Source: Thermodesulfobacteriota bacterium (lineage in GTDB: Bacteria; Desulfobacterota; RBG-13-43-22). Taken from it: a stretch of 64,000 nt of DNA. Below, one piece after another: positions 54,900-61,667 of the stretch. The stretch's first letter is position 1, and every line of letters starts with the position of its first letter. The translations under genes were made by a program, and so were the position numbers. The notes beneath the pieces are model-generated. The model ran no database searches and was not told the DNA's origin. It was given only the letters and a program-made list of their open reading frames with translations. The stretch is taken from positions 41,045 to 105,044 of the forward strand of contig JBFMBU010000030.1 of NCBI GenBank assembly GCA_040755035.1, in the 5' to 3' direction.

Positions 54900-55172
54900 C
54901 CAAAGGGTCTCGTATAAGGGGACATTCGTTCTGAAAGTGCTTTGCAAAAAAAGACAGTCAATCAAAAGAAAAGAGTCGATGATCTTGGAGGAATTGCGGT
55001 CGTTAGTTGATGGTCTGGATTGAAATGGTTTTCCGATAACTGTGGCGAAGGGGCCACACCCGTTTCCATTCGGAACGGGTTGATTAAACCCTTCCAAGGC
55101 ACCCTTAATATTAACTCCCGCCTCTATCGATTCTCACTTGACAATAATATCCTTTTGAGATATTACTTCATC

Positions 55173-57942: not shown

Positions 57943-58530
57943 ATGAAAACCCCATTATTGACAACTAAACGATTGATTTTGAAACCGATCGCTCTGTCGG
58001 ATGCACCAGCGATTCAAAAGTATTTTAACAATTGGAATATTATTAAAAATCTGACTACTGACGTTCCCTGGCCCTATCCTGATGATGGCGCTGAATATTT
58101 TTTGAAAAATATTGCCTTGCCCAAAGTGGCGGAAGGAGCTTCATTACTGTGGGGCATTCATATTAAAAATGGCCCGGACGAACCGGTTGGAATTATTGAA
58201 TATCGGTTTAATAACGATTTGGGTCGAGGGAATCGAGGCTTCTGGCTTGCCGAACCTTTTTGGGGAAAGGGATATATGACCGAAGCGGTTACAGCCGTAC
58301 AAGACCACCTATTTTTTGAACTGGGCATCAATCGTATCATTGTTTTAAATGCGAAAAGTAATAGCGGCTCACGTCGCGTAAAAGAAAAAACGGGTGCGAA
58401 ATTTATTAGTCATTGTAAACTTGAGCATAGAAGTGGTGAGACAGAATCCGAGAAATGGGAAATCACCTTTGAATCCTGGGCAATTATTCGAGGGAAATCT
58501 TTAACGGAAAGGGGGGCGTCCCCTATATAG
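57943..58530 (+). CDS. GNAT N-acetyltransferase (RimJ/RimL-like)
   Basis: MKTPLLTTKRLILKPI...; GNAT motif A GKGYMTEAV. Confidence 0.85.
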   Translation: MKTPLLTTKRLILKPIALSDAPAIQKYFNNWNIIKNLTTDVPWPYPDDGAEYFLKNIALPKVAEGASLLWGIHIKNGPDEPVGIIEYRFNNDLGRGNRGFWLAEPFWGKGYMTEAVTAVQDHLFFELGINRIIVLNAKSNSGSRRVKEKTGAKFISHCKLEHRSGETESEKWEITFESWAIIRGKSLTERGASPI

Positions 58531-59569: not shown

Positions 59570-60019
59570 TCACGGAAGATGTAAGATATCTTCGAGATCT
59601 TTGTGTCTCCCGGCAGCCTGTTTATTCTTTTTAAGATCCGGAAGGGAAATCAGATTGACTTGAATTCCTTCGATCTCTGCCACCTCTCTATTGGAAAAAC
59701 ATTCCTTGAAATCAACTCCGGAAGCATCGGTAATCACTTCCAGTCGAACCGGCGGTACCCCCATCCGGATTACCTTTTTCATTTCCAAAAAAAGGTCTTC
59801 GTAAACAATATCTCTCGGCACCCCAAAGGCCTGAAAGGCGGAAGTTATCTTCTTGGCATTTGTTTCGCTGCGTTCTATCCAAATGTCCATATCACCGGTC
59901 GATCTCGGGTACCCGTGATATCCAACGGCATACCCGCCGACCAGAAGATATTTGACCTCAAAAAAGGTCAGCAGTCTCAAGAAATCTTTGAAGTCTGGAT
60001 GTAGCTCTATCCTGGCCAT
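59570..60019 (-). CDS. Minimal nucleotidyltransferase-fold protein
   Basis: GGYAVGYHGYPRSTGDMDIWI (GS...DxD NTase motif); C-terminal GRHKDLEDI. Confidence 0.55.
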   Translation of the reverse strand: MARIELHPDFKDFLRLLTFFEVKYLLVGGYAVGYHGYPRSTGDMDIWIERSETNAKKITSAFQAFGVPRDIVYEDLFLEMKKVIRMGVPPVRLEVITDASGVDFKECFSNREVAEIEGIQVNLISLPDLKKNKQAAGRHKDLEDILHLP

Positions 60020-60185
60020 AGATCATCCTTCTATTGATTTCGACAGCTTCAATCCTTTCCAGAGGACTCTTGGTGCCCCAATAACGCTTTTCTTCGGCAA
60101 TTTCGTCTAGAGAAGCGATTTGGATTATTTCTTTTTTCAGACTTGGAAGTTTGTCCATTTCTCCACCTCCTTTAAGATATACCAC
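59958..60185 (-). CDS. Small hypothetical protein upstream of, and overlapping, the nucleotidyltransferase gene
   Basis: ORF only; 62-nt overlap with the downstream gene. Confidence 0.25.
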   Translation of the reverse strand: MVYLKGGGEMDKLPSLKKEIIQIASLDEIAEEKRYWGTKSPLERIEAVEINRRMIYGQDRATSRLQRFLETADLF

Positions 60186-60595
60186 TCTTTTTTTAAAAAA
60201 AGAAAGTGCTGCGGAAGGATGCGCAGGTTCGCTGAAGTGGACCTCCAGATCTTGAGGAGTAGTGTATTAAGAACATTAAGGTTAATTATAACTTAACCGG
60301 TTAATTTGTCAATAAAATGATAAAAAGAAAAAAAGACAAAGTCAAAGAGAAAACCAGGTCAAGAACCGATCGATTAATCTGGAAAAACATCATAGATCTC
60401 TTGGATCAGTGACGGTGAACTTAGGTACCATCGGTCTGGGATTCTCCTCCAGTTCTATGACGCATGGAATAAGGTCATCTTTTTTTTAACGGTCTCCCCG
60501 AGAAGCGTTACTATTGAAACCATAATATCCGACCATTTGCTCTCTCTGATCCGGAATATTGGAGATCATGGCCGTTCACCTTGTTAGGGAAAAGA

Positions 60596-61667
60596 GGGAC
60601 GTTGGTTCTAAAACAACTTGACAAAAGGGGAAAGAAGGGATAATCTCTCAATATGCCAAGACAACCAAGACTTGATACAACCGGTGCATTGCATCATATT
60701 ATGGGGCGGGGGATTGAAGGGAAAGAGGTATTTGCCGACCAGAAGGATTGTGAGGATTTTCTTCGCCGGCTTAAGGATCTTTGTGAGAATGAGGCCTTAA
60801 GTATTTATGCCTGGGCCTTGATGGACAACCACTTTCATCTTTTGGCCAGGACTGGAAGGTTATCTCTATCTGAAAGTATGCGGAAGCTTTTAACCGGCTA
60901 TGTGGTCAACTATAACCGCCGACATAAAAGATATGGCCATCTTTTTCAAAACCGATTTAAATCCATTCTATGTGAAGATGATCCTTACCTATTGGAGTTG
61001 ACGCGATATATACATCTGAATCCTATCAGGGCCGGGGTAGTTAAGGATATGAAGTCGTTGAGTAGATATGAAAGGTGCGGCCATTCGGCTATTATGGGGG
61101 TTATTAATCGTTCTTGGCAGGATCGGGACACGATTTTGTTCTATTTTGGCAAGAAACGGAAAGCTGCGATTGGAAAATATGAGCAATTTGTCAAGGATGG
61201 GATTAAGGCTGGAGGCCGGCCGGAACTTGTGGGAGGAGGGCTGATTCGGAGCCTTGGGGGATGGTCCCAGGTTCTTTCGCTAAAAAGGACCGGGAAAAAG
61301 ATATTTTCAGATGAACGAATATTAGGGGGAAGTGATTTTGTAAAAGAGGCGATCAAGGATGCAGAGGAAAAAGAAAGGGAGACACTGCGATTAAATCTAA
61401 AGATATCCGATATTGCCTCATGGGCAGAAAAGATAAGCCAGGGAGAGGGCGTTGATAAATCCGAATTACGTTCAGGGATAAGGAAAAGAGAGGTGGTAAA
61501 AGCTCGAAAGATATTTTGCCAGTTGACGGTAAAAAAGATGGGGTATTCCGGAGCAGAGGTTGCTCGATTTCTTGGCATCACAACTTCGGCTGTAAATCGT
61601 TTGGCCGTCTCAGAGGAGTTACCGGAAATAATGAAATATCTTTAAGTTGTTTTGGAACCAACGTCCC
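60596..61667 (+). mobile_element. About 1.07-kb unit: Y1 (HUH) IS200/RAYT-like transposase-DnaA_C fusion gene flanked by 24-bp terminal inverted repeats (gggacgttggttctaaaacaactt / aagttgttttggaaccaacgtccc)
   Basis: IRs seen directly with 1 mismatch; the right IR overlaps the stop codon. Confidence 0.6.
60653..61645 (+). CDS. REP-associated-tyrosine-transposase-like (IS200-like Y1, HxH plus YIHLNPIRAG motifs) fused to a DnaA-C-terminal-like HTH domain
   Basis: DNHFHLL HUH motif, RYIHLNPIRAGVV Tyr motif, and a C-terminal HTH (GYSGAEVARFLGITTSAV). Confidence 0.8.
   Translation: MPRQPRLDTTGALHHIMGRGIEGKEVFADQKDCEDFLRRLKDLCENEALSIYAWALMDNHFHLLARTGRLSLSESMRKLLTGYVVNYNRRHKRYGHLFQNRFKSILCEDDPYLLELTRYIHLNPIRAGVVKDMKSLSRYERCGHSAIMGVINRSWQDRDTILFYFGKKRKAAIGKYEQFVKDGIKAGGRPELVGGGLIRSLGGWSQVLSLKRTGKKIFSDERILGGSDFVKEAIKDAEEKERETLRLNLKISDIASWAEKISQGEGVDKSELRSGIRKREVVKARKIFCQLTVKKMGYSGAEVARFLGITTSAVNRLAVSEELPEIMKYL

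Follow-up and report, generated by a model that had tools for sequence, protein, structure and literature searches.

A probable TIRtron in a Thermodesulfobacteriota contig: a RAYT-like HUH gene with a DnaA-type helix-turn-helix between 24-bp terminal inverted repeats

Introduction

What kind of unit is a gene that joins a HUH nuclease to a DnaA-like DNA-binding domain, and that is closed on both sides by almost the same 24 bp? The question is raised by a locus in contig JBFMBU010000030.1 of a Thermodesulfobacteriota bacterium (assembly GCA_040755035.1). We analysed a stretch of 64,000 nucleotides of this contig (positions 41,045 to 105,044, forward strand), below called the window. An earlier note, made from the sequence alone, had described the locus as a compact mobile unit, either of a distinct, poorly described type or a domesticated REP-RAYT-REP unit (REP, repetitive extragenic palindrome; RAYT, REP-associated tyrosine transposase). 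Our answer, to which we give a probability of about three in four, is that it is a TIRtron: an intact TIRYT gene, encoding a RAYT-like HUH/Y1 enzyme with a DnaA-domain-IV-like helix-turn-helix (HTH), between its own 24-bp terminal inverted repeats (TIRs), forming a discrete and occasionally moving unit.

The names TIRYT and "TIRtron" stand for RAYT-like genes that are flanked by TIRs, not by hairpins (Di Nocera, De Gregorio, Rocco 2013, BMC Genomics 14:522, PMC3733652). They were equated with TnpA_REP subclass 2.1, which is RAYT group 1 of Bertels 2017 (PMC5581495), by Quentin, Siguier, Chandler and Fichant (2018, BMC Genomics 19:475, PMC6006769). The signature of this subclass is a HuH motif NHVH or NH[YF]H, a W motif W[EQ] or FQ and a Y motif YIELNP or Y[IV]HLNP. 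Further, its members have a C-terminal HTH extension (Bac_DnaA_C, HTH_23 or HTH_28), lack a REP in their vicinity and average 1.9 copies per genome (PMC6006769). The subclass has been reported in about 15% of bacterial strains, and according to the literature there is no evidence that it moves. The kind of element is already described and named, and the window copy is a further member of it, in subgroup 2.1.2. Of the earlier note's "distinct, poorly described type", the poor characterisation stands, while the novelty is removed by these two papers (PMC3733652, PMC6006769).

Results and discussion

A gene enclosed by inverted repeats

The cassette consists of the following parts.

60596-61667, plus strand: whole cassette, probably a TIRtron, from outer repeat end to outer repeat end, 1,072 bp; similarity to 15 full-length copies starts and stops at these coordinates
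60596-60619, plus strand: left TIR, GGGACGTTGGTTCTAAAACAACTT, T variant at position 14 (repeat search of the window)
60618-60623, plus strand: TTGACA, a -35-like hexamer across the inner edge of the left repeat, about 30 nucleotides (nt) upstream of the ATG (read from the sequence)
60653-61645, plus strand: TIRYT gene, ATG start, 330 amino acids (aa), intact, stop included (open reading frame call, domain searches)
61644-61667, minus strand: right TIR, C variant, the reverse complement of GGGACGTTGGTTCCAAAACAACTT (repeat search of the window)

Two inverted arms of 24 nt enclose the open reading frame (ORF) at 60653-61645 and match each other at 23 of 24 positions. They are the only matches to the 24-mer in the window at up to 3 mismatches (0.00 expected, from 100 shuffles); when the search is loosened to 6 mismatches, one extra, poor match appears at 54919. 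Of the TAA stop codon (61643-61645), the last two bases already belong to the right arm. Both the compact layout and the overlap with the stop codon are as the earlier note had them. The GC content of the cassette is 44.1%, 6 points lower than that of the window (50.5%).

The same note had seen a partial, REP-like self-complementarity within each arm. This does not survive folding: as single-stranded DNA the arms reach -1.6 to -3.0 kcal/mol, which is shuffle-like (z -0.7 to 0.0), and no stable hairpin is formed. In addition, the repeats carry neither a GTAG nor a CGTC tag. These properties bear on the first alternative, a REPtron, that is, a domesticated RAYT between two inverted REPs that takes care of the upkeep of genome-wide REP/REPIN hairpins and whose gene itself no longer moves. 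With non-palindromic and untagged arms we regard a REPtron as unlikely, and return to it below where the protein and the dispersed repeats are described.

The outer motif of the window ends reads aGGGACGT and tGGGACGT, which agrees with 6 of the 8 positions of GGGGWSAS. In close relatives the motif is GGGGACGT (7 of 8 positions) and in distant relatives it is GGGGTCAx, a full match. GGGGWSAS is found in most TIRtrons but not in every one (Di Nocera 2013, PMC3733652). From the position and sequence of the TTGACA hexamer we infer a possible role as promoter.

A HUH/Y1 nuclease joined to a DnaA-type domain

Within the protein three regions can be told apart.

60653-61102, plus strand: HUH/Y1 nuclease domain, aa 1 to ~150, with H60/H62 at 60830-60838 and the catalytic Tyr119 at 61007-61009 (Pfam, Foldseek, alignment)
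61208-61342, plus strand: Gly-rich insertion and linker (...LVGGGLIRSLGGWSQVLSLKR...), aa 186-230, subfamily-specific (alignments, model)
61334-61642, plus strand: C-terminal DnaA domain-IV-like HTH domain, aa ~228-330 (family profile, model superposition)

The nuclease domain is recognised by Pfam Y1_Tnp at aa 15-121 (1.6e-9; 38.4 bits, threshold 23). Its HxH motif is N59-H60-F61-H62, the W-type motif F98-Q99 and the Tyr motif Y119-I-H-L-N-P124, so that NHFH, FQ and YIHLNP all agree with the key motifs of subclass 2.1. In a family alignment of 32 sequences with identities of 27-85% (alignment A1), R3, R6, H15, N59, H60, H62, Y119, H121, N123 and P124 are invariant. Every catalytic residue is kept in the window copy which, judged by its sequence, is catalytically intact. 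As in the TIRYT description, the HUH motif and the catalytic Tyr are conserved, and TIRs bound the gene in place of REP palindromes.

The C-terminal domain is less easily seen. On the single sequence, Pfam Bac_DnaA_C reaches 23.6 at aa 260-308, below its threshold of 31.5, and a search of the Protein Data Bank (PDB) with the single protein sequence gave nothing relevant, so the family profile was required. The profile matches DnaA domain IV (2HCB/1L8Q 9.6e-9, 3PVP 1.5e-7, 1J1V 1.2e-6), and also E. coli TnpA_REP 4ER8 at 0.0076. The AlphaFold2 model (mean pLDDT 71) is confident in both domains but not in the linker and insertion at 186-251. The C-terminus of the model superposes on 3PVP_B (rmsd 2.3 A, 81 columns) and on 1J1V (2.8 A). 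The HTH extension of the subclass is thus present by family profile and fold, the single sequence being below the Pfam threshold. Pfam Y1_Tnp, the profile and the fold together confirm the two-domain architecture read by the earlier note.

A DnaA replication initiator was considered and rejected, as AAA+ domain III is absent before domain IV. No AAA+ domain was found in the protein: the alignment to DnaA is limited to aa ~180/228-320, the N-terminus is a HUH nuclease, and the protein is therefore not a DnaA. The C-terminal ~90 aa share fold and profile with DnaA domain IV (1J1V, 3PVP). In contrast to DnaA, the oligomerisation domain is missing as well, the recognition helix reads GITTSAVNRL where DnaA has its DHTTV signature, and the repeat of the window is unlike the TTATCCACA box.

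The Gly-rich insertion is missing from the distant TIRYTs in alignment A1 except L002, and many of its residues are invariant within the subfamily (alignment A2). It is modelled as disordered (pLDDT <50), which suggests a possible partner-binding segment.

Comparison with known systems

By fold, the nearest solved relative is a RAYT. The top Foldseek match, and the best structural match to the N-terminal domain, is E. coli TnpA_REP with a REP hairpin (4ER8; E 4e-5, TM 0.67 on the target; Nunvar 2010, Ton-Hoang 2012, Messing 2012), followed by the TnpA proteins of IS200, ISDra2 and IS608. The best NCBIfam match is REP_Tyr_transpos (NF047646). Both observations favour a REPtron, and the E. coli system shares the HUH motif with a single Tyr in Y---NP, a single-copy gene between inverted cognate repeats, and repeats dispersed between genes. 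However, the NCBIfam match scores 61.8 bits, under the 80-bit RAYT equivalog cut-off, and the region of RAYTs that reads GTAG bears other motifs in subclass 2.1 (PMC6006769). The E. coli RAYT is ~165 aa without a DnaA-like HTH and its substrates are GTAG-tagged palindromic hairpins, while the window protein has 330 aa and its repeats are non-palindromic. Of the comparison with hidden Markov models proposed by the earlier note, the Pfam Y1_Tnp part came out above threshold and the RAYT cut-off was missed; lack of palindromic hairpins and of GTAG, together with this score, speak against the REP-RAYT-REP unit that it had suggested.

A second alternative is an ordinary autonomous insertion sequence (IS) of the IS200/IS605 type, moving by hairpin-guided single-strand 'peel and paste'. 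It would account for the Pfam Y1_Tnp domain and for the IS200, IS608 and ISDra2 TnpA proteins as secondary fold matches; further, IS608 and ISDra2 share with the window element the HUH/Y1 fold and the lack of target-site duplications. The motifs are those of class 2 (NHFH, Y---NP), however, and not of class 1 (DH[VI]H, Y[IV]ENQ). The ends of the window element are inverted repeats without subterminal hairpins, where IS200/IS605 elements have two like-oriented hairpins on one strand, and there is no tnpB. Nor does the copy number seem high: no identical copies were seen across contexts, and few relatives turn up among plasmids (13 of 72,556 records) or viral contigs (4 loci). Motifs and end structure largely refute this reading, which we hold to be most improbable, and the note's view that this is not a classical IS200/IS605 element is upheld by motif class, ends and copy number.

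The resemblance to the TIRtrons of Di Nocera 2013 is much closer. They share a RAYT-like HUH/Y1 gene that is longer than RAYTs and TIR-flanked, a right repeat that overlaps the 3' end of the gene, a repeat that is also present elsewhere as single, paired or clustered copies, and a G-rich outer end akin to GGGGWSAS. The window subfamily differs in its outer motif, (G)GGGACGT, in the Gly-rich insertion of ~26 aa and in its source, metagenomes of Thermodesulfobacteriota type. With subclass 2.1.2 (Quentin 2018) it has in common the motifs NH[YF]H, FQ and Y[IV]HLNP, a Bac_DnaA_C-like HTH, the absence of a REP by the gene and probably few copies per genome; members of the subclass are common in delta-proteobacterial lineages. 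What sets the window subfamily apart from subclass 2.1.2 as described is that its cassettes are sharply delimited by the repeats in many contexts and have non-autonomous derivatives; relative to the TIRtron description of 2013, the data on boundaries, selection and miniature elements are new.

The family at large

TIRYT-like proteins are abundant. The protein search was saturated, with 7,995 of 8,000 scored candidates significant. Among the top 120 homologues the identity is 69-85%, the nearest being 85% identical to the window protein, and most have exactly 330 aa. A scan of species-representative genomes gave 539 relatives across many phyla. No carrier for horizontal transfer could be identified in the plasmid and viral collections.

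The layout of the cassette is also retained over long distances. In about 30 distant homologues from many phyla (27-44% protein identity) the gene is enclosed by inverted repeats of 15-31 bp, which mostly begin GGGGTCA.... The spacing was measured at 22 loci. In 21 of them, 46-95 nt separate the left repeat's outer end from the ATG that follows, and in 21 the distance between the stop codon and the right repeat's outer end is -4 to 27 nt. Of the 22 distant loci, 15 have TTGAC(A) where the left repeat borders on the interior of the cassette.

Boundaries, selection and movement

If the cassette is a discrete unit, similarity between copies should end with the repeats. Loci with copies of 64-88% identity share the 24-mer on either side of the gene, with C or T as its 14th base, and their flanks are unrelated. 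In an all-against-all blastn, the similarity of each of the 15 full-length copies (1,068-1,088 bp) runs from one repeat end to the other and no further. As an example, L081 1039-2111 aligns to 60595-61667 of the window at 83%. No target-site duplication was found in 21 elements, miniature and deleted forms included. Read in the orientation of each repeat, the flanks are rich in purines (...AAAG|GGGAC...GTCCC|CTTT...), a pattern that would be expected either if the repeat extends weakly to ~31 bp or if the target is symmetric; at position -1 the window copy departs from this pattern at both ends.

The ratio of non-synonymous to synonymous substitutions (dN/dS) is 0.07-0.18 among copies and 0.11-0.18 between the window gene and its relatives, which shows that the gene is under purifying selection. 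Among copies dS ranges from 0.5 to saturation, whereas the 24-mers vary by only 0-2 of 24 bases. Since they are near-invariant at such distances the repeats are strongly constrained, as expected of cis-acting sites.

A third alternative is that this is an immobile host gene, in which an autoregulated HTH protein binds the repeats as operator or terminator sites and the HUH domain is vestigial. The overlap of TTGACA with the left repeat, the well-supported HTH domain, an apparently low copy number and the single context of each protein would all agree with this. We still judge it very unlikely. All HUH/Tyr catalytic residues are invariant at identities of 27-85%, the cassette stands among unrelated neighbours across the genomes examined, similarity going no further than the repeats, gene-less miniature elements and solo repeats exist, and the GC content is 6 points under that of the host window.

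How often the cassette moves is a different matter. Identical proteins are each confined to a single genomic context (P0119 in 9 contigs, P0077 in 4 contigs), which points to a low copy number. Two Logan contigs terminate exactly at ...CCAACGTCCC, the right repeat, so that the samples concerned may contain more than one context; such ends are only weakly informative on repeat collapse, as other short contigs stop at arbitrary points. Together the sequence comparisons support a discrete unit with non-autonomous derivatives, whose movement is seen over evolutionary time, and not a proliferating IS. The word "mobile" in the earlier note is justified in this restricted sense only, given identical proteins in a single context and one copy in the window. 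The refutation that the note had named for itself, a 24-mer found nowhere else and a gene at a conserved locus, is contradicted by a 24-mer in at least 120 metagenome stretches and by a gene in unrelated contexts.

Some cassettes show changes of their own. L130 628-1618 is an otherwise full-length cassette (88% nucleotide identity to L149) with an in-frame stop and a degraded right repeat, i.e. a decaying copy. Duplicated ends are found in L137 (509/567), L159 (1146/1182), L158 (75/100), L109 (884/1033) and L032 (2859-3000). They are of three types: the right end in tandem together with 12-34 nt; a full left repeat preceded by a partial one; and, in a distant member of the family, a left repeat present three times. 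Such ends may be by-products of enzyme action at the ends.

Repeats without the gene

The 21-nt core of the repeat was scanned for exactly in metagenome contigs. At least 120 stretches contain it, and 80 loci (L084-L163) were analysed. Among these 80 loci listed, about 25 have the gene beside the repeat and about 55 have the repeat alone; 58 of 65 solo copies lie outside ORFs of at least 100 aa. In L105, L120 and L143 decayed genes have left solo copies behind, and internally deleted cassettes are present in L148 (471 bp) and L151 (275 bp).

Miniature elements, overall 96-234 bp, are a further form. A miniature inverted-repeat family of ~98 bp is found in various flanking contexts (L103 138-235, L113 23-120, L138 955-1050). 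Its interior is conserved (GAAATCGGTyGGCCATTTTTArAGAAGCGGCAAATATGG...), and partial copies occur in L111, L147 and at L138 2166. Elements of 195 and 234 bp stand beside full cassettes in L095 and L146.

A REPtron would find arguments here: among the metagenome loci listed, solo 24-mers, mostly intergenic, exceed those linked to a gene, and the gene appears to be single-copy and is under purifying selection. Against this stand two observations. In the 64 kb of the window there are no solo copies, where several would be expected of REP-rich genomes, and it is the entire cassette, including the gene, that is sharply bounded in unrelated contexts.

The arrangement of the solo copies varies. Several copies on one contig are nearly always on the same strand (L118 1047/1284/5185/6681; L162 1320/2160/2298; L093 24/717/1131); this bias results partly from local tandem duplication and is not taken as evidence. 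In L114 (8272-8520) and L161 (397-520) the 24-mer heads a tandem unit of ~125 bp (the repeat plus CACAGTTGAGGAGGAAGAACTGAAGAATCA...AAGTCGATGAATC). A run of GTCTGTYT-like 8-mers lies directly inside the 24-mer repeat in L099 (504-720), L123 and L134. Repeats of another TIRYT subfamily (GGGGTCAAATCTTTATCCTTGACA type) are found near GGGACGTTGG-type repeats, ~40 nt outside in L134, 8 nt inside in L125 and ~200 nt away in L147. By analogy, such mixed-subfamily clusters recall bacterial interspersed mosaic elements (BIMEs).

Proposed mechanism

We infer the following mechanism, in which recognition of the repeat by the protein, cleavage and transfer are all read from sequence and fold. Through its HTH the protein would attach to the repeat, most plausibly in duplex form, and its HUH/Tyr119 centre, which is complete and of the single-strand nuclease-ligase type, would nick and rejoin one strand at or just outside GGGAC. 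Now and then this activity would transfer the whole cassette or, in trans, gene-less repeat-bounded derivatives and solo repeats. Binding at the left repeat would probably also repress the TIRYT gene itself, since the -35-like TTGACA overlaps this repeat; self-repression would explain the apparently low copy number (about 1 per genome) and the absence of recent bursts. An alternative substrate would be a panhandle, in which the arms pair in a single-stranded cassette and both cleavage sites are on one strand, as in REPINs.

The bolder proposal is that TIRYTs use a HUH/Y1 mechanism not yet seen, in which duplex, non-palindromic ends of 24-31 bp are read via a DnaA-type HTH and nicked outside GGGAC, moving the cassette as well as solo and miniature repeats. 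We put this forward as tentative, and would not be surprised if it proved wrong.

Several points weigh against our reading of the locus as a moving TIRtron and of its action. Known Y1 HUH enzymes act on single-stranded hairpins, and the repeats of the window do not fold. A second cassette copy or a solo repeat was not found in the 64-kb window, and the outer motif of the window, A/T-GGGACGT, departs from the published GGGGWSAS. A consensus scan calls no sigma-70 promoter at the left repeat, where the -10 hexamer is weak. The empty sites in relatives that the earlier note had proposed to look for were not found: searches for the exact TIRYT protein and for that of the downstream major facilitator superfamily (MFS) gene gave no record, and the closest relative of the MFS gene (76% identity, L217) has only this gene in common with the window, with no synteny on either side. 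The repeat of subclass 2.1 is unlike a DnaA box (Quentin 2018, PMC6006769). Finally, we found no experimental work on any TIRYT, biochemical or genetic, in the literature.

Genomic context in the window

The cassette lies at the right edge of a low-GC patch of ~7 kb (54-61.7 kb; GC 0.39-0.54, mostly 0.40-0.45; window mean 0.505). Two features of the patch have coordinates.

57943-58530: GNAT acetyltransferase gene
59570-60185, minus strand: DUF6036-like nucleotidyltransferase with a small upstream ORF, a toxin-antitoxin-like pair

The patch is poor in intact genes and contains several broken ORFs; from its composition and content it resembles an accessory island. A protein annotated from a Thermodesulfobacteriota metagenome-assembled genome is identical (100%) to the MFS protein encoded downstream. 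Rfam and tRNA scans of the window found nothing.

At the locus of one relative (L081 390-1037, L082 1695-2746) the other strand carries an IS91-like gene pair (Zn_Tnp_IS91 and Y2_Tnp, weak matches), which begins 2 nt beyond the left repeat. An IS91-like fragment to the left of the window element (60340-60570, minus strand) was considered and rejected, with no significant similarity and no Pfam match.

Significance

As an annotation the feature in the window is ordinary. The subfamily to which it belongs offers a clean test case: its cassette is compact (1,072 bp), its 24-bp end is nearly invariant, and miniature derivatives as well as solo copies occur naturally. The known range of HUH nucleases would be widened if the HTH does read the duplex repeat, and TIRYT might be of interest as a sequence-specific HUH tag. 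Should the proposed mechanism be true, duplex-reading TIRYTs would be a second, independently built 'resident replicator' system of the REP/RAYT kind, widespread in Thermodesulfobacteriota and many other phyla.

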